Shown one piece after another: positions 9,674 through 41,033 of a stretch of 47,642 bases of DNA. Under the pieces are notes generated by a model, which worked only from the letters and a program-made list of their open reading frames with translations, was not told the origin of the DNA and ran no database searches. The stretch spans positions 1 through 47,642 of the forward strand of contig JADFLJ010000001.1 in NCBI GenBank assembly GCA_022564475.1, read 5' to 3'. Origin of the DNA: Pseudomonadota bacterium. Its GTDB lineage: Bacteria; Pseudomonadota; Gammaproteobacteria; Steroidobacterales; Woeseiaceae. The position numbers and the translations under genes are program-made. Numbering within the stretch: position 1 is the first letter of the stretch; every line of letters starts with the position of its first letter.

Positions 9674-10870
9674 TTATTTGATGGACGCGTAACGTTCCGC
9701 GATGACCTCGATCAGGTCGCGCGCCAATTCAGTTTTGTCTGTCATCGAGAATGCCTGATGACCGTCCGCAGTGTATACGCAGACCGTGTTCTCGTCGTGA
9801 TCAAAACCGCGATCACGACCTACAAGGTTGGCGATGATCATGTCGAGCTTCTTGTTCTCGAGCTTGGCCAGCGCATGCTCGCGCAAGTTCTCGGTTTCAG
9901 CTGCAAAGCCCACCGTAAACGGGCCCGCTTCCAGCGCCGCTACGGATGCAAGAATATCTCTTGATCGCACGAGGTCGATTTGCATCACCTCGTCTTTCTT
10001 CTTGATCTTTTGTTCGGACAAAGCGGCCGGCCTGTAATCTGCAACCGCAGCCGCTGCGATAAATAGATCGACGTCTTCGAGATTGGCGTGCGTCGCCGCA
10101 AACATCTCTTCTGCGGTTTCAATACGATGAACCTCGACGCCTCGAGGAGCATCAAGCGCAACGGGTCCGCTGATCAGAATAGTTTTTGCACCCTGAGCTA
10201 CCGCTGCGCCGGCCATTGCATAGCCCATTTTTCCGGAGCTGCGGTTAGTGATGTAGCGCACAGGATCGATCGGCTCGCGCGTCGGCCCCGCCGTAACGAG
10301 TACGGTCTTGCCGGCCAACAGGCCTTCGCCGGCAACGCCGCGAAAACCGGGCGCCGTGACAATCGCCGCAATTTCCTGCGGCTCGGTCATGCGGCCGGAT
10401 CCGGTTTCGCCACAGGCCTGGGAACCGTGGTCCGGACCGATCACCGCGAAACCCCGATCTGCCAGCGTCGCACGGTTGGCTTGCACAGCCGGGTTGTTCC
10501 ACATCACGTGGTTCATGGCAGGTGCAATTGCGATCGGCGCCTCGGTCGCGAGACACAAAGTCGTCAACAGGTCCGGTGCTGCTCCGCCCGCGAGCCGCGC
10601 CATGATTTCCGCCGTCGCCGGCGCGATCAACACAACGTCGGCCCAGCGTGCGAGCTCGATGTGGCTCATGGACGCCTCGGCTTCCTTGTCCCAGAGGTTC
10701 GATCGGATTGGCTGGCCAGACACAGCCTGCAGCGCCGTCGCCGTCACAAATTCCTCGGCCGAACTCGTCATGACGATCTGCACATCAGCACCCTGCGATT
10801 TCAGCTGGCGCACGAGTTCGGGCGTCTTATACGCCGCAATACCGCCAGTAATGCCTAGAACGATGTTCAT
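9674..10870 (-). CDS. coaBC: Bifunctional phosphopantothenoylcysteine decarboxylase / phosphopantothenate-cysteine ligase
   Basis: The N-terminus is [23 protein letters not shown], and the CoaB half carries [27 protein letters not shown] 10870 is preferred over GTG 10885. Confidence 0.95.
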
Positions 10871-10880
10871 GGGTGAATTT

Positions 10881-10929
10881 TCCACTGAATCGGGTCATCG
10901 CGTCCAGATTTATTGCTTGTGTCGATAGA
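10881..10929. repeat. Left copy of a 49-bp direct repeat bracketing the hipBST islet
   Basis: 45 of 49 positions match 13022-13070. The two copies share a perfect 29-bp core, CGTCCAGATTTATTGCTTGTGTCGATAGA (10901-10929). Confidence 0.85.
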
Positions 10930-10983
10930 AGGGTCTGGCGGACTATAGCCAGAGAGGTGGTCAATTTGCGCTGTTCTCCGAAC

Positions 10984-11964
10984 CTAAACGCCAATTGATA
11001 GTGTACGCAGCCGGTCAACGATGATTTCGCCTGCGTGTACTTTCTGTTCGTCACGCATATAGCTATGGTGAATCATGTCTATCAGTTGAGGTAACTTACG
11101 TTCGATGTTCTTGACGAAGGATTGAATTGGTTTGGCCGGTATGCCGAGTTTACCAGCGAGCTCAACAAAATCGTGGCCAGTGTAATAACCATGGTGTTCG
11201 TATTGAGCGCTGAAGCCGTTGTCGAGTAAGTCCAGGGCGAGGAAGCCCACCTCGTTTTGGTTTTCGAACGCGCCTGCAAAGAGACAATCGTAGTTTGGCG
11301 TGAGCTGATCGTAGAGGGCGGTTGTATTATTAGGAAACTTCTGCAGGCTGGTGTTCTTAAGGTGCATGTCGTCGTTACCAACGAGATAAGCGTGCATGAT
11401 GCGGTGAATGTATTCCAGGACGACCGTCTGTTTGCCGCCGGTCATTGCGTTAATCAGTGCACCGGCGGCTTCATAGCTTTTGTCGTATTTCCTGTCACTG
11501 GGCATGTCGAACCCTTGCACCAGACCTTCCTGATGGATTTTTTTTACGTTGTCCGGCCGATCAAATCGTCGAGTGATGTAAGCAAGCTCATCGTCGGCAA
11601 AGCTGATGAGTCCACAGTCAGCGGTACGAATCCCGAGGATGTGACCCGTTAACATTGCAGTGTGTTCGTTTTCCGCAGCATTGGGAAACTCTTCCGGGCT
11701 TGGTTTTAATATGTACTGTCCATTCGTGGTGACCGGTTCCAGTTGATGGCTTTTGGTGATTCCCAGCGACAGTTTCTGTTGCACACCGGATATTGACAGG
11801 CCGGTCGTGTAACGGACGCTTGCTTGCTTAAATGCTGGGCGTGAGAGTTCGAGTACTGGGTTTACCTTCAGACTACCGAACAATGACTTGAACGCCGCGT
11901 CCTGATAGTCGCGGTATTTCGAGGCTTTCGGTACTGTCTTTAAGCTAATCTTGCAATAGGTCAT
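10984..11964 (-). CDS. hipT: HipT-like Ser/Thr kinase toxin (C-terminal part of a split HipA)
   Basis: The internal ATG 11962-11964 of ORF 10984..12063 gives MTYCKISLKTVPKASKYRDYQDAAFKSLFGSLKVNPVLELSRPAFKQ, which resembles the HipT N-terminal minidomain. The Gly-rich loop GLSISGVQQKL carries the SIS serines. Catalytic motifs GNDDMHLKNTS and LTPNYD are present. Confidence 0.85.
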   Translation of the reverse strand: MTYCKISLKTVPKASKYRDYQDAAFKSLFGSLKVNPVLELSRPAFKQASVRYTTGLSISGVQQKLSLGITKSHQLEPVTTNGQYILKPSPEEFPNAAENEHTAMLTGHILGIRTADCGLISFADDELAYITRRFDRPDNVKKIHQEGLVQGFDMPSDRKYDKSYEAAGALINAMTGGKQTVVLEYIHRIMHAYLVGNDDMHLKNTSLQKFPNNTTALYDQLTPNYDCLFAGAFENQNEVGFLALDLLDNGFSAQYEHHGYYTGHDFVELAGKLGIPAKPIQSFVKNIERKLPQLIDMIHHSYMRDEQKVHAGEIIVDRLRTLSIGV

Positions 11965-12295
11965 AGCTTTTGTCTGTTTCGGTGATAGCGGGGTCGATGC
12001 GTACGGCGCCGATGAGGTCTCGTCCATTGGCCAGCAACAATCCGAATCGATCGTTTTCATCAATTTTTTGCTGCTGTGACTGCAATCGTCTTAACCAGCC
12101 CTCGGAGACGAGGTTTTCGAAGAAGGGAAACAGATGTGCGCTCACAAAGGCGTCTTCTTGTAGCGGTAAATTGAAGCTCAATGGTGTTCCACCGGCGAGA
12201 TAGTCGGCATGGTAAGTGAACTTATACTCGTCTTCGATCTGCGTTAGCGATCCTGCGAGTCGATTCTCGAAATAGACGTTCGCTATCCGATCCAT
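11945..12295 (-). CDS. hipS: HipS-like protein (stand-alone HipA N-terminal subdomain)
   Basis: This is a 116-aa ORF: MDRIANVYFENRLAGSLTQIEDEYKFTYHADYL...PLSFNLPLQ...FPFFENLVSEGWLRR...LLANGRDLIGAVRI. That is the HipA N-terminal (Couple_hipA-type) pattern. It overlaps hipT by 20 nt and hipB by 13 nt. Confidence 0.8.
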   Translation of the reverse strand: MDRIANVYFENRLAGSLTQIEDEYKFTYHADYLAGGTPLSFNLPLQEDAFVSAHLFPFFENLVSEGWLRRLQSQQQKIDENDRFGLLLANGRDLIGAVRIDPAITETDKSYDLLQD

Positions 12296-12579
12296 AGTTT
12301 CAGCCCTAAGGCGTTGAGTACCTTTTGCAATTTACCCAGGCGTACTGACCGGTGGCCGTGTTCGATCTTACTCAGTGTGGAATAGGCAACACCGGACAGA
12401 TCACACAGATCTTGAAGCGATTGCCCCTGTTTTTTTCTGTGTTCACGAACGAGGCGGCCAGCCGCCTCTGCCGGTTCTAGTTGGGAGATTTGGCCGGACA
12501 GGCTTGCCTGTCGGCGGGCATCCAGGTACTCACCGCGAATTTCAGCGAGCAGGTCATCAAAATGTGTGGCAGAAACCAT
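12283..12579 (-). CDS. hipB: XRE-family HTH protein (HipB-like)
   Basis: This is a 98-aa ORF with the HTH QSLQDLCDLSGVAYSTLSKIEHGHRS...LQKVLNALGLKL. It is the first gene of the three-gene set. Confidence 0.8.
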   Translation of the reverse strand: MVSATHFDDLLAEIRGEYLDARRQASLSGQISQLEPAEAAGRLVREHRKKQGQSLQDLCDLSGVAYSTLSKIEHGHRSVRLGKLQKVLNALGLKLWIG

Positions 12580-12592
12580 TATTAAACCATAG

Positions 12593-12604
12593 TATTCTAG
12601 AATA
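12593..12604. promoter_or_regulatory. Perfect 12-bp palindrome TATTCTAGAATA between the predicted hipB promoter and the hipB start; candidate operator
   Basis: The palindrome was read directly and lies 14-25 nt upstream of the hipB ATG. Calling it an operator is inference. Confidence 0.3.
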
Positions 12605-12614
12605 ATAGAGTGAA

Positions 12615-12641
12615 ATTATATGGAAAAGGCGTGATAGTCAA
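12615..12641 (-). promoter_or_regulatory. Candidate sigma70 promoter of hipBST (TTGACT-N15-TATAAT on the minus strand)
   Basis: The reverse complement reads GTTGACTatcacgccttttccaTATAAT. The -10 is perfect and the -35 is near-perfect. The spacer is only 15 nt (16 nt if GTTGAC is taken as the -35). Confidence 0.45.
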
Positions 12642-13021
12642 CGAAAACCGTCAAATAATGGCGTAAATAGTCGAATAAATACGATATTATATGTTAAAGA
12701 ATATATTATAGTCGGCAAATAGGCACAAGTAAGGGCGAGTAGAGTGTAAGTTTGTTGGTTGGCCTACCGACTGGGTGTGTCGAAATTATCTGGTCAGATC
12801 GACACAAATCTCATCACGTCAATTCCGAATATGGGTGTAATCTCACCCATGTGGGACTTTGAAAGAATTTGAATTCGCGCAGATTTACGCGAACCGGTCG
12901 CTAAACTATTGGCTCAATAGTCCTCTTGACCGAGTGCTATTAGTAACCAGGCAGTATGTGCTCGTTGTGAATCTATCGCGCCTGAATCCAGGGCCTCACT
13001 AACAAAGTTACGCGCCCAGTG

Positions 13022-20013: not shown

Positions 20014-20051
20014 CCGATAACGGGACGATCGATTCTTTATCCCGTTATCGG
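20014..20051. terminator. 12-bp perfect inverted repeat between convergent rpoH and the OmpA-like gene (terminator-like)
   Basis: The arms are CCGATAACGGGA (20014-20025) and TCCCGTTATCGG (20040-20051). There is no clear U-tract, and the right arm overlaps the stop of the minus-strand gene. Confidence 0.45.
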
Positions 20052-20711
20052 CACCATTGTTATCTCAACACGGCGGTTCGCCTGCCGACCGGATGCAGTG
20101 TCGTTGGTGGCGATCGGGCGTAGCTCGCCCGTACCCACGGAAATCATTCTTTGTCCCGCAATCCCCTGCACCTGCAGGTAATGGGAGACTGACGATGAGC
20201 GACGTTCCGACAGGCTCTGGTTGTAGGCTTCCGAGCCGCTGCTGTCGGTGTGCCCGGCGACCTCAACAATTGTCCGGTCGAATTCTGTCAGCACTTTTCC
20301 TATTGAACTCAGCACATCGAAGAATGCAGGGTTCAGATCGGAGCTGCCTGTGGCGAAAGTTACATTGCCCGGCATGTTGAGGGTTATGTTGTCGCCTATA
20401 CGCGTGACGCTGACGCCGGTGTCTTCGAGTTCAGAGCGCAGCTTCGCCTCCTGGCGGTCCATGTAGTAGCCGATAGATCCGCCAGCCAATGCACCGATGC
20501 CCGCACCGATTAATGCGTGTTGGCGACGCTCGACTGCATCATCTCCCGACATCAGGCCCGCAACTGCGCCGGCAGCCGCGCCGATCAGCGCACCCTTGGT
20601 TGCATTGCTGGTCTTACTCTCTTGCGTATACGGGTCCAGCGTCTCGCAGCCTGCTGCAACAACGAGTATTCCAGCCAACATAGAAATTCGTCCAAGTGCT
20701 TTAATGTTCAT
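20037..20711 (-). CDS. OmpA-family lipoprotein with a glycine-zipper region
   Basis: The lipobox is LVVAAGC. A Gly-zipper (GALIGAAAGAVAGLMSG...GAGIGALAGGSIG) is present. The OmpA_C motif is TGSSDLNP...VAGHTDSSGSEAYNQSLSERRSSSV...RQANRRVEI. Confidence 0.85.
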   Translation of the reverse strand: MNIKALGRISMLAGILVVAAGCETLDPYTQESKTSNATKGALIGAAAGAVAGLMSGDDAVERRQHALIGAGIGALAGGSIGYYMDRQEAKLRSELEDTGVSVTRIGDNITLNMPGNVTFATGSSDLNPAFFDVLSSIGKVLTEFDRTIVEVAGHTDSSGSEAYNQSLSERRSSSVSHYLQVQGIAGQRMISVGTGELRPIATNDTASGRQANRRVEITMVPITG

Positions 20712-20856
20712 TAGCGTGTCCTTCACTCAAAACCATACAATCGTGAACATTAGACAGGATGCGGCTGAATGACTCCTTAACAGGTCGCACTTTTTACATC
20801 CCAGGCAACGATAGTCTGCGCGTGTAAAATGGACGGCCACCCTGCGGACCCGGACC

Positions 20857-22593: not shown

Positions 22594-23910
22594 ATGAACG
22601 CGGCGGCACCACCCAGTGATCGCGACGTCTGGCGCATCGCCGCGCCGATGATTCTCTCCAGTGTCTCAGTACCTTTACTGGGCATGGTCGACACGGGCGT
22701 CATGGGCCACCTGGAAAGCCCCGTCTATCTCGGCGCCGTTGCGGTCGGCAGCATGATCTTCAGCTTCTTGTACATGGGCATGAATTTCCTGCGCATGGGC
22801 ACGACCGGTATTACGGCGCAGTATTTCGGTGCGCGTAAGGCTGACGGACTGCGTGTCGCGCTGGGTCAGGCCATCGTCGTTGCGTTCGCGATTGCGCTTG
22901 TCATGATCGTCCTGCAGTGGCCGATCAGCCAAACGGCTGTGAGCCTCGTCGGCGCGTCGATGAATGTAGAAGAACACGCGCTGCAGTATTTTTCGATACG
23001 CATCTGGAGTGCGCCCGCCACACTCGCAAACATGGTGTTGATCGGCTGGTTCATCGGCCTGCAAAACGCACGCATTCCACTCCTGATTTTTCTGACCGTC
23101 AATATTACGAATATCGTGCTGGACCTGGTTTTCGTTTTGCTCCTCGGCATGAAAGTCGATGGCGTGGCGCTCGCCTCAGTCATCGCGGAGTACTCCGGTT
23201 TCGCACTTGGCCTTTGTTTTGCGGCGCGTGCACTGCGCCAGCACGGCGGTCAGTGGGTCCACAGTAAGTTTGTGAACTGGCGCGAGTACGCGGTTTTTTT
23301 TGCGGTCAACGGCAATCTTTTCATTCGCACAATGGTGCTGATTTTTACGATCGCGTTTATTACCGCGCAAGGCGCGCGCATGGGCGAGGTGATTCTTGCC
23401 GCGAATGCCATACTCCTGAACCTGCAATACCTGACTGCGTTCGCACTGGACGGTATTGCGCACGCGGCCGAAGCGCTGGTCGGCAAGGCGATAGGCGAAA
23501 AACAACGTGAATCAGTGCAGGTTGCCGTCCGCTTGTCGCTGAAGTGGTCATTGATATTTGCAGCCGGCATGACGCTTTTATATTGGCTCGGCGGCCCGGT
23601 GCTGATCGCCGCGCTCACTGACATTCCCGACATTCGCGAAGCGGCAATACGCTACTTGCCGTGGATGATTTTGTCGCCGCTGGTCTCGGTCTGGTCATTC
23701 CTCTATGACGGTGTGTATATCGGCGCGACGCGCTCGCGAGAGATGCGCAACATCATGCTGTTCTCGGTCTTTATGGTCTTTTTTCCGGCGTGGTATTTGC
23801 TGCAGGGATATGGCAACGACGGTCTTTGGCTTGCCTTCCTGTTGTTTATGGCAAGCCGCGGCATCGGCATGCACATCGGCTATCGACGAACGTTATTGCC
23901 GTCCATCTAG
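22594..23910 (+). CDS. MATE-family efflux transporter (DinF-like)
   Basis: It has 12-TM topology. The N-terminus is VWRIAAPMILSSVSVPLLGMVDTGVMGHL. Confidence 0.85.
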   Translation: MNAAAPPSDRDVWRIAAPMILSSVSVPLLGMVDTGVMGHLESPVYLGAVAVGSMIFSFLYMGMNFLRMGTTGITAQYFGARKADGLRVALGQAIVVAFAIALVMIVLQWPISQTAVSLVGASMNVEEHALQYFSIRIWSAPATLANMVLIGWFIGLQNARIPLLIFLTVNITNIVLDLVFVLLLGMKVDGVALASVIAEYSGFALGLCFAARALRQHGGQWVHSKFVNWREYAVFFAVNGNLFIRTMVLIFTIAFITAQGARMGEVILAANAILLNLQYLTAFALDGIAHAAEALVGKAIGEKQRESVQVAVRLSLKWSLIFAAGMTLLYWLGGPVLIAALTDIPDIREAAIRYLPWMILSPLVSVWSFLYDGVYIGATRSREMRNIMLFSVFMVFFPAWYLLQGYGNDGLWLAFLLFMASRGIGMHIGYRRTLLPSI

Positions 23911-23943
23911 TAGTCCAACAAGCTAGGTTTGATGGACCACTAG
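23907..23943. terminator. Inverted repeat spanning both stop codons of the convergent MATE genes
   Basis: The arms are CTAGTAGTCCA (23907-23917) and TGGACCACTAG (23933-23943), with 10 of 11 positions complementary. There is no U-tract. Confidence 0.3.
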
Positions 23944-25289
23944 TCCGGCGTACACAAACTATGCGCTGTGTGGCGCGCCCATGCATATGCGCCGATCCCG
24001 CTCACGATATTGGCGATCGCGTAAGCCACAAAGATGCCGACCACGCCATAGAACTTAAGTCCGATGAATGCGAGCGGCACGTACAATACAAGGATGCGCG
24101 CGACACTGATCCAGACAGCGGGCATCGGCTTGCCAAGGCCGTTAAACGACGCGTTCATGACCATGACCATGCCGTAGGTGCCATAGCTGATCGGCACGAT
24201 CCAGAGAAATAATTTCGTCACTTCCATGACAGCCTCGGAATCACTGAAGAGCCGCGGCAAAACATCCGACAGCAGTGCAAGAATGCCGGCAATGACCATC
24301 CCGGCAGCAAGACAGAACAACGTACACAACCACAGCGCCCGGAGAATTCGTCGCTCGCGTCCGGCCGCAAAGTTTTGCCCGACGAATGGACCGATGATCG
24401 ACGACATCGCGTAGAAAATGACCAGCATCATGGCTTCGATACGCGTCGCCACACCGAACCCGGCAACCGCATCTGTGCCAAGGCGCGCAATCATCGCCGT
24501 GACCAGCACAGCACCCAGCGGCACGATCGCGTTCGTACCCGCCGCCGGAATGCCTACGTGCAAAATGTCGCGCCAGGATTTTCGTAATTCCACCGGGTCG
24601 GGTTTGTTGAAACTCAGCATGTCCAGTCGAAAGCGCATCAGGTAGATCGTGCCAACAAAGATCGTCGCGCGCGCAATCAAGGCCGCGGTCGCCGCGCCAT
24701 CCAGGCCCATCGCCGGAATCGGCCCGACGCCGAATATCAGGATGGGGTCAAGCGCTACATTGAGTATCGCTGCCATAACCATGAGCATGCTCGGCAAGCG
24801 CGTGTCACCGGTCGCACGCATGCTGGCCATGCCGATCATGCCAACCACAACAAATGGCACGCCCGAATACAAGATCGTCATGAACGACCTGATCATGGGC
24901 AACATGTCTTCCGGTGCACCGAGCAGGCGAAACATCGGATTAATGGTCAAAATTCCAATCGCGCAAATGACGAGAGTGATCAGGAAGCCAAGAAAAAGAC
25001 TATCAGTGGCCAGGCGCCTCGCGCGGCGATGATCGCCGGCGCCGATTGCGCGAGCAACGACAGAGGATGTACCTGCCGCGAGTCCAATCGCAACACTCGT
25101 AACAATCATCAGGACTGGAAAGCCGAAACCGAACGCGGCCAGCTCCCGATCGCCGACCTGCCCCAGGAACCAGGTATCGATGAGTCCTTGCGCCATCATC
25201 GTCGAGATGCCAAACAAAACCGGCACCGTCATGTCGATCAGGTGCCGGCCTACCGGTCCCTCGGTTAATCTCGCTTTTGGCGCATCCAT
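23940..25289 (-). CDS. MATE-family efflux transporter (NorM-like)
   Basis: The N-terminus is LTEGPVGRHLIDMTVPVLFGISTMMAQGLIDTWFLGQ and the protein has 12 TM segments. Its start overlaps the sortase stop by 25 nt. Confidence 0.85.
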   Translation of the reverse strand: MDAPKARLTEGPVGRHLIDMTVPVLFGISTMMAQGLIDTWFLGQVGDRELAAFGFGFPVLMIVTSVAIGLAAGTSSVVARAIGAGDHRRARRLATDSLFLGFLITLVICAIGILTINPMFRLLGAPEDMLPMIRSFMTILYSGVPFVVVGMIGMASMRATGDTRLPSMLMVMAAILNVALDPILIFGVGPIPAMGLDGAATAALIARATIFVGTIYLMRFRLDMLSFNKPDPVELRKSWRDILHVGIPAAGTNAIVPLGAVLVTAMIARLGTDAVAGFGVATRIEAMMLVIFYAMSSIIGPFVGQNFAAGRERRILRALWLCTLFCLAAGMVIAGILALLSDVLPRLFSDSEAVMEVTKLFLWIVPISYGTYGMVMVMNASFNGLGKPMPAVWISVARILVLYVPLAFIGLKFYGVVGIFVAYAIANIVSGIGAYAWARHTAHSLCTPD

Positions 25290-25909
25290 GCGCGCACCGT
25301 AGCACGGCCCGCAGAACCGACTACCGAATCTCGCAACAGGCTCAACGTAACGACATAGCGCATGGGCCCACCCGCGGCAACTGCGTCAAACGGATAACAG
25401 GTCACAAGACTAAGAACGGATTCGTCGGTATCGAGCAGCAGGCTCCCGCGGCGGGCGTCCACGACATCCAGGTCGACAACCCGGTAGGTATGACCACGGC
25501 CGTCGGCGGTCTCCACCTGCAGCTTTTCGCCAATGGCAAGATCCTTGAGAAAATTGAAATGCGTATCGCGATGACCTGCGATGACGCTGTTACCGCGTTG
25601 ACCCGGCATGACACTCGCACTCAGGTGGCCGGGCCCGAAGGCCAGCGTTCGACCCGAGCCACCCGCAAGCACGATCAGGTCCACTTTGCCGCCCCTGGCC
25701 CGGAGGCGGGCGATTGGCCAGGTGTCGGCCCAGGGCCAGGGTGCAGGGCTGGCTTCACCGCGCGTCGCCCGGCCCCAGGCATGCAACATGAGTCCCTGCG
25801 CCACCCAGGCCTTGGCCGGTATGTACGCGCCGTGGCCAAGCTGCCAGAAACCGAGACACAGAAGGCAGGCGATGATCCAGCTCCGCGCGTTCTTAAACCG
25901 CCATCGCAT
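25265..25909 (-). CDS. Sortase, marine-proteobacterial (class GN) type
   Basis: The start is taken at M10 (MRWRFKNARSW, TM anchor). The catalytic His is in VIAGHRDTHF, the Cys in LSLVTCYPF and the Arg in PMRYVV. It overlaps the stop of the upstream target gene by 17 nt. Confidence 0.85.
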   Translation of the reverse strand: MRWRFKNARSWIIACLLCLGFWQLGHGAYIPAKAWVAQGLMLHAWGRATRGEASPAPWPWADTWPIARLRARGGKVDLIVLAGGSGRTLAFGPGHLSASVMPGQRGNSVIAGHRDTHFNFLKDLAIGEKLQVETADGRGHTYRVVDLDVVDARRGSLLLDTDESVLSLVTCYPFDAVAAGGPMRYVVTLSLLRDSVVGSAGRATVRAWMRQKRD

Positions 25910-27983
25910 GATGCATCCTCCGCCGGCGGCGACCAAGCATCATTAACATCAGTGCGCTGAGGAAACAGCCGAATCCGATCAGCTGCATTTGAGTAGCATT
26001 CGTCGCAGTCGCCGGGAAAGCGAAAATCGCATTCGCGTTTTGTCCATACGCCACAAGATTCGGTAGCTGGTCTTTGCGCATCGGATCGTTCGCGGCGCGC
26101 ACGGGTGTTTTGTCGATCGCCACAAGACTCGTGTGCTTGCTGACGAGATGATGCTTGAGCGCAGTCTCGACGATCGCGTCACGAATCTCGTCCGGGCTGG
26201 CTCCGCGGCGCTGGTCATCCATAAGATGCGAGATGCGTGCTCTGGCCCACAGAGCGCCGATACCGGAACTTTGTTCTTCGCTGCCAAGTTCCATTTCCTG
26301 AAACCACGCACCCCCGACCGAATCACCGCTTATGCCGACGCGGGCATCCGCACCCAGCTCGCCGCGTATTCTCGCCTTGATCGTGACAGGCTCGCCGAGA
26401 TACAAGTCCGGCACGACGCTCGGGTAAGTCTCGGCGATCACGTTAGCTGGCCACACGACGCTGATGTTCGTCACTTGTGGTTGTTCGATTTTGGCGAACA
26501 ATCGATGCATTTTTTCGCCGACTTCGTGTAACGCACTAATCGTCGTAAACGTACCTCGACCGACTTCGGCCGATTTGCGCATGAACCAGCTGTTCGGTGC
26601 AGAACCGATCCCGACCGTGAACAAGCGGCCATTGCCAAGCTTGTTCTCGATGAGTTTGAACAATTCACTTTCGTTGCCGACGGCACCGTCGGTGATGAAA
26701 ATGATCTGTCGCAGGTGGCTCTCCTCGGGAGGCAAGTACATTGCCAGCTCGAGTGCGGCACGCATCTCGGTACCGCCGCTGGCTTGCAGTGAGCCGACGA
26801 ATGACTCCGCCGTTGCGAGATTCTGCAGGTTGGCGACGACACTTGAGTGCGACATCGGATTGGGTCGCGAGCTAAAGGCAATGATATTGAATCGGTCACC
26901 TGGACGAAGACCTTGCAGCGCACGTCGCAAAGCCTTCTTTGCCTGCACAATTGACGTGCCGTGCATGGAACCCGACGTGTCGATGATGAAAATCATCTCA
27001 CGCGGCATGATGTTCGCACTTGCCGTGTCCGCTGACGGCGGCATGACCATAAGAAGGTAATAGGACTCACCGTTAATCGTCTCGGTGAATACCATCGCCG
27101 TCGGCGCAGCACCGCGTGCCGGTCGCCAGAGTAATTCGAAGTCATGGTCCATGGGTACCGTGCCGCCCGCCAGCGAGATGGAGTAGCGATCATTTGTTTC
27201 CGAGATGTTTACCGGGTGATAGCGACTCGCGATAATTTCGAGCGGCATGCCTGCATTCACATTGATGTTCATCGATACCCGATGCCCGCGCGTGGCGGCG
27301 ACCATAGGCGGAGTGATGCGTGATGCGTCTTCGACGACGTCGGTGTTTGCCGCCCAGCCGCTGCCCTCACGATCAGGCAGTCCCGATGCAGCTCCAGGAA
27401 TGTAGCGCGGTGTTATTGTCAGCGGGAAGCGGATACTGAATGAACCGTTGTCGTAGCGAAGATCTTCGAGATATTCGATTTCGACGACGACAAGCTCGCC
27501 CGGCGCAATGTTGGCGACCGATGTCGTAAACATATTGGGACGTTGTTGCTCGACGAGACTGGCTTTCTTGCCTTCTCGCTTCGCCTGTTCGTATTCCTTT
27601 TTTGCCTGCGCTTTCTCGCGAATCTCAGCTTCGATGAATCGATCGCCGATATGCAGGCGCAGCCGGTCGATTGCCGCTTTGTCGGGCAGCGGAAAAACGT
27701 AAACGCCTTCTGCCCAGTCAGTGCCCTCATTGCGAAATTCCTGGCGCACCGATACGCGTGCAACGAGACCGTTAATCTGTATGTCGACTTTGGTATTCAG
27801 CAGCGTCGAGACGTGGTAGCCGCCCTGCATACGCAGCAGCAGGCTGCCTCCCTGCATGGCACCGGGTGTGATTTCATCGGCCGCCGGCTGCTGGGCGAAT
27901 GCGCCGTCGGGATTGATGGCCAGGATTGTAATCAGCAGCGCATGCCAGACCCATGTTGACTGGCGTTGCAGTAATTCTGCCAT
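25893..27983 (-). CDS. Marine proteobacterial sortase target protein (VIT + von Willebrand factor A domains, C-terminal sorting signal)
   Basis: The start is ATG 27981-27983, giving the signal peptide MAELLQRQSTWVWHALLITILAINPDGAFAQ. A VIT-like region follows. The vWA MIDAS motif is IFIIDTSGSMHG. The C-terminus is FPATATN + ATQMQLIGFGCFLSALMLMMLG + RRRRR. Confidence 0.85.
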   Translation of the reverse strand: MAELLQRQSTWVWHALLITILAINPDGAFAQQPAADEITPGAMQGGSLLLRMQGGYHVSTLLNTKVDIQINGLVARVSVRQEFRNEGTDWAEGVYVFPLPDKAAIDRLRLHIGDRFIEAEIREKAQAKKEYEQAKREGKKASLVEQQRPNMFTTSVANIAPGELVVVEIEYLEDLRYDNGSFSIRFPLTITPRYIPGAASGLPDREGSGWAANTDVVEDASRITPPMVAATRGHRVSMNINVNAGMPLEIIASRYHPVNISETNDRYSISLAGGTVPMDHDFELLWRPARGAAPTAMVFTETINGESYYLLMVMPPSADTASANIMPREMIFIIDTSGSMHGTSIVQAKKALRRALQGLRPGDRFNIIAFSSRPNPMSHSSVVANLQNLATAESFVGSLQASGGTEMRAALELAMYLPPEESHLRQIIFITDGAVGNESELFKLIENKLGNGRLFTVGIGSAPNSWFMRKSAEVGRGTFTTISALHEVGEKMHRLFAKIEQPQVTNISVVWPANVIAETYPSVVPDLYLGEPVTIKARIRGELGADARVGISGDSVGGAWFQEMELGSEEQSSGIGALWARARISHLMDDQRRGASPDEIRDAIVETALKHHLVSKHTSLVAIDKTPVRAANDPMRKDQLPNLVAYGQNANAIFAFPATATNATQMQLIGFGCFLSALMLMMLGRRRRRMHHAMAV

Positions 27984-28051
27984 TGTTTTGCCGGCCTGTC
28001 GGTGGCTAACTTGCGGGTGCCATGTGCGCTGACCTCGGTACATCGTATCTC

Positions 28052-28084
28052 TCCCTTGCTTGACGAATGTATTCAAACAAGGGA
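28052..28084. promoter_or_regulatory. 11-bp inverted repeat in the divergent target/pdsR promoter region (candidate operator)
   Basis: The arms are TCCCTTGCTTG (28052-28062) and CAAACAAGGGA (28074-28084), with 10 of 11 positions complementary and an 11-nt spacer. The left arm overlaps a TTGACG hexamer. Confidence 0.3.
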
Positions 28085-28164
28085 ATACGCCACTCTGCCG
28101 ACGGCGACGTGGCATTACACCGACGTAATGTGGCAAATTGTGGTGCTTGCTAAAGGAGGCCTTT

Positions 28165-28857
28165 GTGGCAAAACGCATTGCAATCGTAGAAGACGAAGTC
28201 GCCATTCGCGAAAACTATGTCGCAGCATTCAAACGAGAGGGCTATGCCGTCGATGCTTACGAGGCGCGCGGGCCCGCACTTGAGGCATTTGCAGCCCGGC
28301 TACCGGACCTCGTCGTAATCGACGTCAATCTCAAGGACGACGTTGAAGGCGGTTTTGAGCTGTGCCGGGAATTGCGATCGCGCGCGCCGGACCTGCCGAT
28401 CATTTTTCTGACGGCACGCGACAGCGAATTCGACGCCGTGTCTGGCCTGCGCCTGGGCGCAGACGACTACCTGACCAAGGACATAAGCTTGCCCCACCTC
28501 ATGGCACGCATCGCGGCATTGTTCCGACGCCTGGATGCGATGTCGAAACCGCAGGCGGCGCAAAGCCGGATTACGCGCGGTGATCTTGAGATTGATACGG
28601 ACCGTATGATGATTGCCTGGCAGGGACAGCCCATCGGCTTAACACTCACCGAATTCTGGCTCGTACATGCCATGGCCCGATATCCGGGACACGTCAAGAA
28701 TCGTCAGCAACTGATGGATGCCGCGCAAGCCGTTCTCGACGACAATACGATTACATCCCATATCAAGCGTATTCGCCGCAAGTTTGTCGCCGTTGATGCA
28801 GACTTCGACGCAATCGAGACCGTCTATGGCATGGGCTATCGCTGGTTGTCGTCCTGA
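28165..28857 (+). CDS. pdsR: Dedicated sortase system response regulator (OmpR family)
   Basis: GTG 28165 lies 5 nt after AAGGAGG and gives VAKRIAIVEDEVAIRENY. The receiver Asp is in DLVVIDVNL. A winged-helix C-terminus (YGMGYRW) is present. The symbol follows the TIGR03787-type family name, and I did not run that HMM. Confidence 0.8.
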   Translation: MAKRIAIVEDEVAIRENYVAAFKREGYAVDAYEARGPALEAFAARLPDLVVIDVNLKDDVEGGFELCRELRSRAPDLPIIFLTARDSEFDAVSGLRLGADDYLTKDISLPHLMARIAALFRRLDAMSKPQAAQSRITRGDLEIDTDRMMIAWQGQPIGLTLTEFWLVHAMARYPGHVKNRQQLMDAAQAVLDDNTITSHIKRIRRKFVAVDADFDAIETVYGMGYRWLSS

Positions 28858-28872
28858 CGGCGACCTAAGGCC

Positions 28873-30921
28873 ATGAATCTCAAACGGCAGCTACTCCTCG
28901 TCAGCCTGCTGACCCTGATGTTGCCGTGGGCCGGCTGTGAATTCATTCGCGAAACCGAATCGGCGTTGCGGCAGAACCAGCAACAACTGCTTGCGGGTAC
29001 GGCGCGTGCGATCGCCGGTCGGCTCGCGCAGTACCCCGAAGAATTTGCCGTTCATGCCGGCGCGAGCCATCTCATCGGCGATCAGCTCTACGGTCATGAA
29101 CTGGAAAGCGCGCCGAACGTCGATGGTTATTTCGACGACTGGCCGCTGACAGAGGCGTCGTTACGATCTCTTCCCGGCGTTGATGGCCCGATACGCTTCG
29201 TAACGGGAATCTTCGAACAGTATGTTTACCTCTATATTGAGGTCGCCGACAAGAATATCGTCTATGGAGATATGGGCTCGCTGCTGCCGATTGCGGGCGG
29301 ACGTCACGCAGATCGGGTGCGCCTGATCAGCCATAGCCCACCCTATCTCGAGGAGTCCATCTCGTTCACGGCAGAGGCACCGGGACCCGTCGTGGCCTAT
29401 GTGCAAAACCCATACGGATTCGAGCCCGCCACAACAATTCATGCTCACTGGCAGGACGTGCCGGGCGGTTACCAGCTCGAAGCACGAATCCCCCGGAACC
29501 TGCTCGGCACGCACCTCGGCGTTGTCGTCAACAACACCGACAACGCGAACGATGCCGGCATTCGCAGCGCGAGTTTCGCAACACGCACGCCGGGCCCATT
29601 CGTCAGCACTTCCGGCGAGCTGGCCCGCATTGCGGAAGGTGTCCTGCAACCGGGGATGCGTCTGCTTGTGACTGATGTAAACGGCTGGCGCATTGCCACG
29701 GTCGGCGATTTGCGATCTCAGCAAGAGACGATCACCGCGCCCGTGTCGACCTGGCTGCGCTTCGCCTACGACGCATTACTCGAACCCGGCAAGGAACCCA
29801 TATTTTCCGGACCGGACGCAAGCGGCCGGGAACAACAGTCTTATATTGTCACAGCCATCGGCGGTCAACGCTCTGCGGTCTGGTTTCAAAGCGCTGACAG
29901 CGGGCGTGCAATTGTTTCGGTCGCAGAACCCGTCACAACAGCAAACGAGACCATCGGCGCCATCGTCTTGCAACAGGGTACCGACGAGATCCTCAGCCTG
30001 ACGAATCAAACACTGGCGAGACTCATGAATGCTTCGATCATCGCAATGCTGGTGGTTGCTGGCGTGCTGCTGGGTTACGCAAGCTTGCTATCCCAACGCA
30101 TACGGCGACTCAGCACCGCTGCGGAGCAAGCGCTCGAGAGCGACAGAATCGAGACGATATTGCCAAGCGCCGACGCGGCAGATGAAATCGGTGATCTGTC
30201 TCGAAGTTTCGGCCATGTGCTTGGACAACTCGGCGACTACAACGAATACCTGCGCACGCTGGCGTCGAAACTATCGCACGAATTACGCACGCCTCTCGCG
30301 ATCGTCAGCTCGTCGCTGGAGAACCTCGAACATGAAAGCTTAAGCGATTCGGCGCTTGCGTACACGGCGCGTGCCAGGGACGGTACTGACAGGCTGCGCA
30401 AAATATTGAGTGCGATGAGTGAGGCCAGCCGCGTTGAAGAGCTGATGAAAAACGCCGACACCGAGAATTTTGATCTGCGCCCGGTACTCGAGTCAACGAT
30501 TAACGCCTACCGCGACATTTACGCCGAACGCAGCTTCACATTTGAATGCGATGGCAGCTCCTTCCCAATGAGTGGCTCACCGGAACTGATAATCCAGATG
30601 CTGGACAAGCTCATCGACAACGCCGTTAGCTTCAGCGCCAGAGGCAATCAGATCAGCGTTGCCCTCTCGGCAGAAGAAGACGACTCCCGATCGAAGCCTT
30701 GCCTGCGTCTGCGCGTCGCAAATCCGGGCCCACCACTGCCCGAGCGCATGCGCACACAGATGTTCGACTCCATGGTGTCGATGCGACCGCACAAGGACAA
30801 CAAGCACCTCGGGCTTGGTCTGTACGTCGCAAAAATAATTGCCGACGGCCACGGCGGCCGCATAACAGGCGAGAACATAGAAGGCGGCGTAGAATTTTCC
30901 GTGTTATTACCGTCGCTTTAA
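28873..30921 (+). CDS. pdsS: Dedicated sortase system sensor histidine kinase
   Basis: An N-terminal anchor (MNLKRQLLLVSLLTLMLPWAGC) and a large periplasmic domain are followed by HAMP-like and H-box (LSHELRTPLAIV) regions. The G-box is HLGLGLYVAKIIADGHGG. It lies 15 nt after pdsR. Confidence 0.8.
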   Translation: MNLKRQLLLVSLLTLMLPWAGCEFIRETESALRQNQQQLLAGTARAIAGRLAQYPEEFAVHAGASHLIGDQLYGHELESAPNVDGYFDDWPLTEASLRSLPGVDGPIRFVTGIFEQYVYLYIEVADKNIVYGDMGSLLPIAGGRHADRVRLISHSPPYLEESISFTAEAPGPVVAYVQNPYGFEPATTIHAHWQDVPGGYQLEARIPRNLLGTHLGVVVNNTDNANDAGIRSASFATRTPGPFVSTSGELARIAEGVLQPGMRLLVTDVNGWRIATVGDLRSQQETITAPVSTWLRFAYDALLEPGKEPIFSGPDASGREQQSYIVTAIGGQRSAVWFQSADSGRAIVSVAEPVTTANETIGAIVLQQGTDEILSLTNQTLARLMNASIIAMLVVAGVLLGYASLLSQRIRRLSTAAEQALESDRIETILPSADAADEIGDLSRSFGHVLGQLGDYNEYLRTLASKLSHELRTPLAIVSSSLENLEHESLSDSALAYTARARDGTDRLRKILSAMSEASRVEELMKNADTENFDLRPVLESTINAYRDIYAERSFTFECDGSSFPMSGSPELIIQMLDKLIDNAVSFSARGNQISVALSAEEDDSRSKPCLRLRVANPGPPLPERMRTQMFDSMVSMRPHKDNKHLGLGLYVAKIIADGHGGRITGENIEGGVEFSVLLPSL

Positions 30922-31409
30922 CGAGCCGACGCCTGCAGTCGAATAAGACCCGAGCTCTGGAACTTGACGGGTTTTGTATAGGGGATGTCGATGCCGAGCC
31001 GGCCTTCGAGCGAATAGGGAATTTCCCGCCGCGTGGCGTCGCGAACAATGAATAGCAGCTCAGGTGCGGTCTGCAACAGGTTAACGTCGACGCTGATCGC
31101 AAATTCTCCGTCACCGCCTGCCGCAATGGTGAACGAACACGCAGCCTCTCCGCTCGCGAAACGATGGCCATCGAGCTTTACACCGTAGTTGATCGACTTA
31201 ACCGGCAACGGGAACGGGTTGGGGTTCCTCACATCGAAAGACAGGATGAATGTCTGGCTATCGAAACCGATATCTTCGACATGCACATTGCGTAACGACA
31301 CTGTGGGCGCACTGACAACGTTATCCAGACTCGCACAGGACGAAAGCAATACCGTCGTTAGCAGCAATACGCCGCTGTTGCATCGATTCAGTCTGTTCAT
31401 GGTTTGCAC
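30918..31409 (-). CDS. LEA_2 / WHy-type (LEA14-like) lipoprotein
   Basis: The lipobox is VLLSSCAS. The LEA_2-like core is FDVRNPNPFPLPVKSINYGVKLDGHRFASGE. The start is either GTG 31409 or ATG 31400. Confidence 0.7.
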   Translation of the reverse strand: MQTMNRLNRCNSGVLLLTTVLLSSCASLDNVVSAPTVSLRNVHVEDIGFDSQTFILSFDVRNPNPFPLPVKSINYGVKLDGHRFASGEAACSFTIAAGGDGEFAISVDVNLLQTAPELLFIVRDATRREIPYSLEGRLGIDIPYTKPVKFQSSGLIRLQASAR

Positions 31410-32606: not shown

Positions 32607-33959
32607 TCACGCGTATTCGCGCGACAGTTTATTATATCGCCACGTCAGCAGGATGGCCGCTACGCCAAGACCAATGACGAAGCCGCCCCAGATATAGTTC
32701 GGCGGCAGCCTGAAGGTCACCGCAGCCAGATACGCCAACGGGAATGCCAGCACCCAATATGAAAATGTATTGATGATCATGGGCACGCGCGTGTCTTTGT
32801 AGCCGCGCAACGCACCTGCAGCGCCGATCTGCACACCGTCTCCAACCTGAAAAAGCGCAGCCATTAGCAGCAGGCTGATTGCGATATCCTTAACCAACTC
32901 GTTATTCGTATACATCGTGACGATCGAATCACTGAAGACGATCAGGAATATTGCCGAGCACGCCATGAACGCGCCGCAGGCGAATATGCCAAATCCTCCG
33001 GCATAGCGGGCGCGCTTAAGCTGACCCGCACCGAGTTCGTGGCTGACCCGCACGGTGATCGCCGAGCTCAATGCCAATGGAATCATAAACATTGTCGATG
33101 CAAAACTGATCGCAATCTGATGCGCCGCCGTTATCACGGCGCCCAGCGTTCCCATCAGGATCGATACGGCATTGAACAACCCGGCCTCGGCCGTAATCGT
33201 GACAGCAATCGGAAAGCCAAGCGAAAAAATCTCTCGCAATACCTTGAGTCGCGGCGGCGCCAGGCGCGAAAAAATCCCTATCACCTTGTAACGCCTGGCC
33301 GAGACCATGTACACGACCATGATAATCGCGATCAGCCACATCGTTATCGCACTCGCGATACCGCAGCCAACGGCACCGAGTTCCGGCGCGCCGAGATTGC
33401 CGAATATAAGCACCCAGTTCAGGAACACGTTGCATACGATCGCAAAGAATGAGATGTACATGATGGGCTTGGTTACACCGATGCCCTCGGTCGTGAAGCG
33501 CAGGGCCAGGAACACAAACATGCCGGGCGCACCCAGCGTGATTGCCTGCGTATAGCCAATGGTCATTTCGCGAAAACCGGGGTCAATCGGAATAAAAACG
33601 AGCAGCGGCCCAACCAGGTACTGCGCTGCAAAAATGACCGGTATCGCGAGTGCAATGCCCAGGTAAATTCCCTGCCGCGTGTAGCGGCCGATCAGGTGCG
33701 CGTCTCCGGCACCGTAATGGCGTGCAGCGATGGGTGCGATTGCCATGAGCAAGCCAAGGCCTATCGTAAACGCGAAAAACCACAAGCTGCCGCCAATGGC
33801 CACGGCGGCCAGAGTTTCCACGCCCAGGCGACCCGCCATAACCGCGTCCGCAAACTGCATACCCGCGATAGACAGATTATTAACGATCAACGGGCCCGCA
33901 AGTTTGAACAAGCGGCCGGTTTCGTTACGCCAGGATAAAGTGTCAGAGTGACGGGTCAC
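32607..33959 (-). CDS. MATE-family efflux transporter (NorM-like)
   Basis: It has 12 TM segments. The N-terminus is ETGRLFKLAGPLIVNNLSIAGMQFADAVMAGRLG. Confidence 0.85.
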   Translation of the reverse strand: MTRHSDTLSWRNETGRLFKLAGPLIVNNLSIAGMQFADAVMAGRLGVETLAAVAIGGSLWFFAFTIGLGLLMAIAPIAARHYGAGDAHLIGRYTRQGIYLGIALAIPVIFAAQYLVGPLLVFIPIDPGFREMTIGYTQAITLGAPGMFVFLALRFTTEGIGVTKPIMYISFFAIVCNVFLNWVLIFGNLGAPELGAVGCGIASAITMWLIAIIMVVYMVSARRYKVIGIFSRLAPPRLKVLREIFSLGFPIAVTITAEAGLFNAVSILMGTLGAVITAAHQIAISFASTMFMIPLALSSAITVRVSHELGAGQLKRARYAGGFGIFACGAFMACSAIFLIVFSDSIVTMYTNNELVKDIAISLLLMAALFQVGDGVQIGAAGALRGYKDTRVPMIINTFSYWVLAFPLAYLAAVTFRLPPNYIWGGFVIGLGVAAILLTWRYNKLSREYA

Positions 33960-40379: not shown

Positions 40380-41033
40380 CTAACCGTGAAAATGCGTATC
40401 GATCACCTGATCTCCCGAAAAGAGATGTCCGGTCAATCGTGCATGCAGCGGGCTGGAGCGGGGAATATGCGCGAGCAGGTACTGCATCTGATCCGCCAGC
40501 ACGCGCCGCCCCTTCAGGTAAATGTACTCGGCATAGGTTGGTGTGAACGGCACCGCGACGAGTTCCATCGCCGCCTGCTCGGGCGTGCGGCCACCCTTGT
40601 AGTTATTGCAGCGCCGGCACGCCGTCGCGACGTTGTTCCAGCTATCGCGGCCGCCGTGCGATATCGGAGTGATGTGATCGCGCGTCAGATCACGTGTCGG
40701 AAATCGCTTCGCACAATAAAGACAAAGATTCGCATCCCGTTTGAACAGCGTGCGATTGTTCAGCGGCGGAACGTATTTATCACGATTACGTGTAAGGCTC
40801 TTGCTTGTACCGTGAGTGGCAATAATCGAATTGACATCGACCTTGCTGCGCTGACCGTCGAATGAGCTGTAGCCGCCGAACACAGTGTAGAGCAGTGTGC
40901 CGCAATCGTAAGCGATCTGTTTGGCATGATAGAGACGCACAGCTTCCCTGTAGTCGATCCACTCAAGTGGCATACCGGCTACGTCAGTTCGCAACACCTG
41001 TTGCGAAATATTGGAAACCATTCCTGCAAGCAT
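40380..41033 (-). CDS. HNH endonuclease
   Basis: The motif CLYC...DHITPISHGGRDSWNNVATACRRCNNYKG combines an HNH motif with a CxxC...CxxC zinc site. Confidence 0.8.
   Translation of the reverse strand: MLAGMVSNISQQVLRTDVAGMPLEWIDYREAVRLYHAKQIAYDCGTLLYTVFGGYSSFDGQRSKVDVNSIIATHGTSKSLTRNRDKYVPPLNNRTLFKRDANLCLYCAKRFPTRDLTRDHITPISHGGRDSWNNVATACRRCNNYKGGRTPEQAAMELVAVPFTPTYAEYIYLKGRRVLADQMQYLLAHIPRSSPLHARLTGHLFSGDQVIDTHFHG

Follow-up and report, generated by a model that had tools for sequence, protein, structure and literature searches.

A four-gene, PdsO-less copy of the dedicated sortase system of proteobacteria in a Woeseiaceae-related chromosome

The window analysed here is a 47,642-nt stretch of contig JADFLJ010000001.1 (GCA_022564475.1), and the locus under study within it is, on the sequence evidence set out below, a four-gene copy of the proteobacterial dedicated sortase (Pds) system, without a pdsO gene, in a Woeseiaceae-related chromosome. 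An earlier sequence-only reading of this DNA had proposed a sortase, a VIT and vWA domain target, a response regulator and a sensor kinase, and all four open reading frames (ORFs) were found intact where it had placed them (Table 1). The system is a known one, defined by hidden Markov models (HMMs), and the present copy is an ordinary one, in the form that the Woeseiaceae, a family of marine sediments, typically have; public databases already give close relatives the name 'marine proteobacterial sortase target protein'. Because the system is already HMM-defined and its relatives are already annotated, the interest assigned to it by the sequence-only reading was too high.

The family identity rests on comparison with the NCBIfam models that the sequence-only reading had named as a check, and the curated cut-offs used are the equivalog thresholds for the proteobacterial dedicated sortase system. 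Three of the gene products score above them: the sortase (TIGR03784, 205.9 bits, cut-off 158.25, all 174 model positions covered), the target (TIGR03788, 759.8 bits, cut-off 551.65) and the regulator (TIGR03787, 385.1 bits, cut-off 335.7). The best match of the kinase is the PdsS model TIGR03785, aligned over its whole length (residues 3-680 to model positions 1-703), but its 542.4 bits fall below the cut-off of 612.2; no member of TIGR03789, the PdsO family, lies nearby. The HMM E-values run from 1e-61 to 1e-228, which rules out chance. Pfam domains are in agreement, with Sortase in the sortase, VIT (126.6 bits) and VWA_3 (79.2 bits) in the target, Response_reg and Trans_reg_C in the regulator, and HisKA and HATPase_c in the kinase. 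The description of the system as complete thus holds for four of its five named components, and has to be qualified for the PdsO missing from the cluster and for the sub-threshold kinase.

Table 1. Features of the dedicated sortase locus and its flank (window coordinates; target residues in 696-aa numbering)
Feature	Coordinates	Strand	Family or basis
Class GN (Gram-negative) sortase, 214 aa	25265-25909	-	TIGR03784, Pfam Sortase
Catalytic His113, in GHRDT	25571-25573	-	alignment to 2LN7
Catalytic Cys171, in TCYPF	25397-25399	-	alignment to 2LN7
Catalytic Arg184, in MRYVV	25358-25360	-	alignment to 2LN7
Sortase target, 716 aa (ATG 28043) or 696 aa (ATG 27983); signal peptide, VIT, vWA, C-terminal region, sorting signal	25893-28043	-	TIGR03788
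MIDAS motif DTSGSM, residues 335-340	26964-26981	-	sequence
Tripartite C-terminal sorting signal (FPATATN, hydrophobic helix, RRRRR, short tail)	25896-26018	-	
FPATATN, residues 656-662	25998-26018	-	sequence
Hydrophobic helix, residues 666-684	25932-25988	-	sequence
RRRRR, residues 685-689	25917-25931	-	sequence
Conserved non-coding block, ~36 bp	28108-28143	- (target-sense strand)	intergenic comparison
OmpR/CreB-type response regulator PdsR (PghR-like), 230 aa	28165-28857	+	TIGR03787
Sensor histidine kinase, divergent PdsS (PghK-like), 682 aa	28873-30921	+	TIGR03785 best match
MATE efflux transporter, just downstream of sortase; not a defined system component	23940-25289	-	

The sortase starts at ATG 25909, with GGAGG 7 nt upstream, and its start overlaps the target gene, whose stop codon is at 25893-25895, by the 17 nt that had been reported; the same 214-aa product appears in gene calls on four other contigs. 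An N-terminal hydrophobic anchor spans about residues 10-30. The best solved relative is the class D sortase of Bacillus anthracis (2LN7, E 4e-12), and alignment with a sortase active site, named beforehand as a check on the proposed catalytic Cys and His, puts GHRDT, TCYPFD and RY in register with this solved enzyme, so that His113, Cys171 and Arg184 are the predicted catalytic triad. The second-best NCBIfam family of the protein is 'class D sortase, LPxTATN-specific', whose motif is close to the FPATATN of the target, and this fits cleavage after Thr; the class D models give 85-87 bits against cut-offs of 140-165. The sortase gene adjoins that of its substrate both here and across the roughly 80 genome loci, mostly labelled Woeseiaceae, with which the locus was compared.

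The target has the secreted VIT plus vWA architecture that had been proposed for it, and only its length needs revision. The ORF is open up to 28205; ATG 28043 is preceded by a GGGAGAG Shine-Dalgarno sequence and was also chosen as the start where genes were called independently on four near-identical contigs, each from another sample, and ATG 27983, the start of the 696-aa version, has no ribosome-binding site, so that the 716-aa product is the likelier one. The metal-ion-dependent adhesion site (MIDAS) is a full one: the DTSGSM motif named by the sequence-only reading is present, and the site residues D335, S337, S339, T405 and D432 are invariant in alignments of 14 and of 45 sequences. In the AlphaFold2 model (predicted local distance difference test score, pLDDT, 75) the target takes the fold of an inter-alpha-inhibitor heavy chain: the model aligns to human inter-alpha-inhibitor heavy chain 1 (ITIH1, 6FPY) over 614 columns with an E-value of 4e-36 and template-modelling (TM) scores of 0.58/0.67.

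All parts of the tripartite sorting signal, FPATATN, helix and RRRRR, were found at the C-terminus. The sequence G-F-P-A-T-A-T-[N/D/S/P]-A is nearly invariant in the 120 closest target homologues. Recognisable motifs of the form [hydrophobic]-P-x-T-[A/G/S], with a hydrophobic stretch after them, are present in 90 of 150 representatives of distant clusters, with YPxTAT in 32, LPxTAT in 23 and FPxTAT in nine of them, and the listed tails of the distant representatives mostly finish in a basic cluster; the signal of the wider family is [Y/L/F/V/M]PxTAT. FPATAT had been called non-canonical, which is right relative to LPXTG, but tail alignment makes it typical of its family, and we rejected it as an unusual motif, given that it is a normal variant among the 150 distant representatives. 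Many of the other 60 distant tails have PxGAT or xQTAT variants, and tails in which Gly replaces the Thr of PxTAT (LPQGAT, LPRGAT, YPQGAT) or Pro is absent (xQTAT) are numerous in the set as a whole (P0241-P0390). If these Gly-variant and Pro-less tails are sortase substrates, their cleavage rule differs from P-x-T.

The regulator belongs to the PdsR family, in keeping with its earlier description as OmpR-type, and its start is GTG 28165, preceded by AAAGGAGG, which gives a protein of 230 aa; its phospho-acceptor Asp sits in VIDVN. It is encoded together with the kinase, divergently from the target-sortase operon. The claim that the 682-aa protein is a PdsS kinase stands as far as the best and end-to-end model match goes, and is weakened by the score below the curated cut-off; the kinase is best called a divergent PdsS-like protein on these sequence comparisons. 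Its predicted layout comprises a first transmembrane helix near residues 7-25, some 360 aa of periplasmic domain, a second helix at residues 388-406, HisKA (His469 in HELRTP) and HATPase_c. Close homologues are named 'hypothetical', 'ATP-binding' or 'HAMP domain-containing' by NCBI (P0122, P0145, P0172, P0182), because they score under the TIGR03785 cut-off, and the Joint Genome Institute labels some of them 'dedicated sortase system histidine kinase'. The result is an annotation gap in which Woeseiaceae kinases are named generically and their partner genes receive sortase-system names.

A PDB sequence search with the kinase gave matches confined to the cytoplasmic kinase core. The AlphaFold2 model of residues 22-385 (pLDDT 82, predicted TM score 0.78) matches 4JPQ, a putative carbohydrate-binding protein (E 1e-5), and the DOMON-type structures 2IVF_C and 7B04_C, and it also resembles PAS/Cache sensor domains such as that of WalK, all at modest TM scores of 0.2-0.5; on this model the periplasmic domain would combine a PAS/Cache-like fold with a DOMON/CBM9-like sandwich. 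As a separate observation, the first hydrophobic segment closes with P-W-A-G-C (28924-28938, residues 18-22, in LPWAGC). In 44 kinase homologues the Cys does not vary, and conservation of P, W, A and G is 90% or higher. This sequence is lipobox-like, and there is a possibility that the N-terminus is cleaved and lipidated and is not a plain transmembrane helix.

That the locus is a decaying or inactive remnant is a very faint prospect: the lower HMM score of the kinase is the sole hint in that direction, against four intact ORFs, ribosome-binding sites of good quality before the sortase, the regulator and the 716-aa target start, invariant catalytic and MIDAS residues, and a gene set retained at 55-77% protein identity in many genomes. 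These conservation data contradict the remnant reading. Metagenome-assembled Woeseiaceae and unclassified Gammaproteobacteria make up most of the closest genomes, the best at 77% identity. Beyond them the target family is very large: no fewer than 7,998 proteins reached E <= 1e-20 in one search, and a library clustered at 50% identity has 26,318 clusters at E <= 0.001 (6,738 at E <= 1e-30). The system is therefore very widespread, and a large sediment lineage keeps it without PdsO.

The order kinase, regulator, then divergently target and sortase is kept in nearly all of the 80 genome loci. As had been noted for the window, no pdsO is adjacent: the gap between the divergent regulator and target genes is 121 bp and holds no gene. 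Across the loci, regulator and target stand about 100-270 bp apart, which leaves no room for pdsO, and of the roughly 80 loci nearly all, the distant L078 and L080 included, lack a pdsO gene. We also considered the YiaD-like OmpA gene at 20037-20726 as a displaced PdsO and rejected it; its product scores 258 bits against the YiaD model (cut-off 175) and 83.4 bits against the PdsO model (cut-off 152.2), and by synteny this YiaD-family lipoprotein gene belongs to the conserved chromosomal backbone. The absence of pdsO from Woeseiaceae-type loci indicates that PdsO is not an obligatory locus-encoded acceptor; it is unlikely to be a universal acceptor, and in loci of this type it appears to be dispensable for the system.

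Comparison of the intergenic regions revealed a conserved non-coding block in the regulator-target gap, composed of CCACAATTTGCCACATT (28127-28143), 7 bp of spacer and GTGTAATGCCAC (28108-28119). In other loci the consensus of the second half is GTGCATTGCCAT, i.e. GTG(C/T)A(T/A)TGCCA(T/C). With up to three mismatches allowed, 74 of 77 intergenic regions contain the 17-mer of the first half, as a rule 21-25 bp away from the regulator start codon, and column conservation is at least 90% across it, with variable flanks; the block is conserved to this degree (>= 90%) though the proteins of the compared loci are just 55-85% identical. The exact 17-mer occurs a single time in each of 49 genome loci out of the 80, always in the regulator-target gap. 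At least 120 exact matches were listed from metagenomes, of which 102 adjoin pdsR or the target gene; the other 18 among those listed come from unrelated contigs (GC 0.31-0.58) in which the block's second half is missing, and for these reasons look like chance. Further copies, sought as a clue to a regulon, were found neither elsewhere in the window nor in the genome loci, where no locus has more than one.

The block contains the direct repeat CCACA-N5-CCACA in 10-bp phase, and direct repeats of this phase are the kind of site bound by OmpR/PhoB-family regulators; the repeat resembles the 'cre tag' of CreB (TTCAC-N6-TTCAC). The opposite strand reads TGGCAA-18 nt-TGgCAAATT. The block is likely a PdsR operator and/or the pdsRS promoter, to judge from its position and repeat, and it may overlap the pdsRS promoter. 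It offers a concrete site for testing regulator binding.

What is known of the function of such systems comes from Shewanella. The pairing of one sortase with one substrate in a few proteobacteria was noted about two decades ago (Comfort and Clubb 2004, as cited in PMC8225981). In S. oneidensis the orthologous two-component system, SO2192/SO2193, has been renamed PghK/PghR and corresponds to PdsS/PdsR; antibiotics that target peptidoglycan, or the loss of PBP1a, switch it on, and it induces blaA and relV as well as the pdsO-target-srtA operon, the last of these more than 17-fold (bioRxiv 10.1101/2023.05.05.539549). In S. algae, the recurrent pdsS mutation G547W raises the sortase, target and pdsO transcripts 126-, 388- and 799-fold, alongside carbapenem resistance (PMC11580497). 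The earlier statement that role and substrate are not experimentally defined thus remains valid for the acceptor and for the role of the anchored protein, but the two-component arm is known in Shewanella (bioRxiv 10.1101/2023.05.05.539549; PMC11580497). In the literature of 2023-2026 we found no demonstrated acceptor or function of a Gram-negative sortase.

It could be argued that the two-component system is a general, PghKR-like wall-stress regulator with its main outputs elsewhere, and that its position reflects inherited synteny and not control of the sortase pair. PghKR of S. oneidensis does control blaA and relV and has a role in beta-lactam resistance independent of the sortase operon; one locus (L066) has the sortase pair with no two-component system nearby, and the kinase of the window is sub-threshold for the PdsS model. 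Set against this are the almost universal divergent arrangement in the examined loci, a conserved block that sits exactly between both operons and nowhere else in the genome loci compared, and the strong induction of the sortase operon through this system in two Shewanella species, so that we regard the argument as improbable for the present locus.

On balance we lean towards a model in which the Pds system is induced by wall stress and its sortase anchors the target to the meso-diaminopimelate (mDAP) of peptidoglycan. We propose that the kinase would sense a periplasmic signal through its PAS/Cache and DOMON/CBM9-like domain, the signal being, by analogy with Shewanella PghK, a peptidoglycan-derived glycan released by wall damage; the resemblance of the sensor model to carbohydrate-binding, DOMON and PAS/Cache folds speaks for this arm. 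Phosphorylated PdsR would then bind the CCACA-N5-CCACA block and activate the target-sortase operon, possibly the MATE gene, and its own operon, a coupling to which the near-universal divergent layout and the confinement of the block to the regulator-target gap point. Sec would export the target, and its C-terminal helix and Arg cluster would keep it in the inner membrane, where the membrane-anchored sortase would cleave FPAT|AT to form a thioacyl intermediate and transfer the target to an amine, most likely the free epsilon-amino group of mDAP in peptidoglycan or lipid II. This acceptor is suggested because Bacillus class D sortases use mDAP-type peptidoglycan as acceptor and mDAP is the free amine of proteobacterial peptidoglycan. 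The outcome would be a metal-dependent MIDAS binding module held covalently on the sacculus during wall stress.

The genes and the regulation would stay the same if the acceptor were not peptidoglycan but a lysine of an envelope protein (a lipoprotein or OmpA-like protein), phosphatidylethanolamine, or water, in which case hydrolysis would release the vWA protein to the periplasm. Class C sortases join proteins to lysines, and sortases hydrolyse their substrates where a nucleophile is lacking, which counts for such an outcome. No acceptor has been reported for any class GN sortase (bioRxiv 10.1101/2023.05.05.539549), and the OmpA-like PdsO of Shewanella is co-expressed with the system as the most strongly induced gene of the set (PMC11580497), and this would suit a protein partner. 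That nearly all compared loci lack pdsO tells against a locus-encoded partner of this kind being obligatory. Class D is the class both of the sortase's nearest solved relative and of its nearest families outside GN, and class D enzymes use mDAP cross-bridges. Taken together, a non-peptidoglycan acceptor is possible but rather unlikely.

Several observations weigh against anchoring to peptidoglycan in response to wall stress and have to be set beside it. Deletion of the sortase operon in S. oneidensis leaves ampicillin resistance unchanged (bioRxiv 10.1101/2023.05.05.539549), so that a wall-protective role is unproven; the same 2023 preprint says that the role of Gram-negative sortases remains unknown, and the literature holds no experiment that shows processing of the target or identifies its acceptor. 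In the sensor arm, the kinase is under the NCBIfam cut-off and the fold matches of its periplasmic domain are modest, and Pfam at E <= 10 gives no CBM9 or DOMON match there, only a weak dCache one. For the regulatory arm, a scan of 25100-31100 gave counts close to those of shuffled sequence and turned up no sigma-70-like promoter in the intergenic region, a lack that activator-dependent promoters would be expected to show, and the conserved block could be a core promoter instead of an operator. The target-sortase pair of L066 has no two-component system in the 10 kb upstream of the target or in the remainder of the locus downstream of the sortase. Finally, the judgement on PdsO and on further substrates covers the window and the compared loci.

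A more specific form of the anchoring model can be offered tentatively: the locus would be a minimal four-gene module, with CCACA-N5-CCACA as its operator, by which wall damage leads to an ITIH-fold protein being tied to the cell's own peptidoglycan through mDAP. If true, it would be a bacterial counterpart of the animal heavy chain-hyaluronan complexes and the first defined sortase function in a diderm periplasm. The function of Gram-negative sortases has been a question since the genomes of the early 2000s; the window gives no answer to it, and Shewanella is the better experimental system.

Synteny extends to the surroundings of the locus. The ATG of the MATE gene overlaps the sortase 3' end by 25 nt (25265-25289), so that co-transcription is possible, and MATE follows the sortase in most loci, at spacings that range from about 50 nt to over 2 kb. 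Within 11 kb around the system there are three MATE transporters (the others at 22594-23910 and 32607-33959), the first two of them syntenic in most related loci. The wider synteny takes in a pair of MATE genes followed by YiaD on one flank; on the opposite flank, some loci have a LEA_2 lipoprotein and DUF924. The LEA_2 lipoprotein and a nearby small ORF downstream of the kinase were considered as members of the system and rejected, being adjacent in some loci only. The pair of L066 (Woeseiaceae; 9920-12591) stands in a different neighbourhood, with a 691-aa target that has a GFPATATP tail followed by a sortase, and is either a second copy or a relocated pair.

The remaining window is a housekeeping chromosome (TrmB, AmpG, Xth, PyrE, Dut, CoaBC, RadC, Fpg, CoaD, RsmD, FtsYEX, RpoH, thiolase, HemH, PntAB). 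The AmpG-family muropeptide permease (5728-6990, minus strand, 487 bits) is of relevance to peptidoglycan recycling and is encoded about 18 kb from the system, and nothing ties it to the latter. G+C content dips to 0.48 at about 11000-13000, from about 0.56 elsewhere, around a 359-aa ORF (10984-12063, minus strand) with no NCBIfam match, and this stretch could be a foreign insertion. A 217-aa ORF at 40380-41033 (minus strand) has a short stretch of a Cas9d model as its sole NCBIfam match (43.7 bits, residues 94-151) and is probably a stand-alone HNH endonuclease.

Among known systems, the closest are SO2192-SO2196 of S. oneidensis (PghK/PghR, PdsO, target and SrtA) and the system of S. algae, which share the sortase, target and regulator families of the window by curated HMM, the divergent operons, and one substrate encoded alongside, its C-terminal signal tripartite. 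The likeness may extend to PghK, whose large periplasmic domain is pictured as two subdomains, a CBM9/DOMON-like beta-sandwich set into an alpha/beta one (bioRxiv 10.1101/2023.05.05.539549), in the modelled DOMON/CBM9-like sandwich. Unlike Shewanella, the window locus has no pdsO between regulator and target, a feature it shares with nearly all of the compared loci; in addition, its kinase is divergent, its sorting signal starts with Phe (FPATAT) and a MATE gene overlaps the end of its sortase. The Bacillus class D sortases (SrtD, 2LN7) have identical GHRDT and TCYPFD motifs and nearly the same PxTATN substrate motif, but the window sortase is far under the class D cut-offs, and the class D host has a single membrane whereas the reaction here would be periplasmic. 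CreBC/BlrAB are the closest named paralogues of the two-component system: CreB is the next family for the regulator at 190.8 bits, and CreC gives 140.9 bits with the kinase. CreBC/BlrAB respond to peptidoglycan perturbation and CreB binds the direct repeat TTCAC-N6-TTCAC; the window proteins, however, score well under the CreB and CreC cut-offs, and sensor domain, repeat sequence and repeat phase all differ.

Human ITIH1 resembles the target model over the whole mature protein, with VIT, vWA with MIDAS and C-terminal region in common, at a sequence identity of about 16%. ITIH proteins are secreted, cut near the C-terminus and covalently joined to a glycan-containing polymer, and by analogy the target would likewise be cut near its C-terminus and joined to such a polymer. 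The ITIH linkage is an ester through the C-terminal Asp to chondroitin sulphate or hyaluronan and is made with no sortase. VIT-vWA proteins of the same family carry GlyGly-CTERM, PEP-CTERM or LPXTG-type tails as interchangeable signals, each with its own processing enzyme, such as rhombosortase for GlyGly-CTERM and exosortase for PEP-CTERM, and in the sortase version the neighbouring gene encodes this enzyme (Haft and Varghese 2011, PMC3237569); the VIT-vWA protein of the window differs from the GlyGly-CTERM and PEP-CTERM members in that it bears a sortase-type signal, and the enzyme encoded next to it is a sortase.

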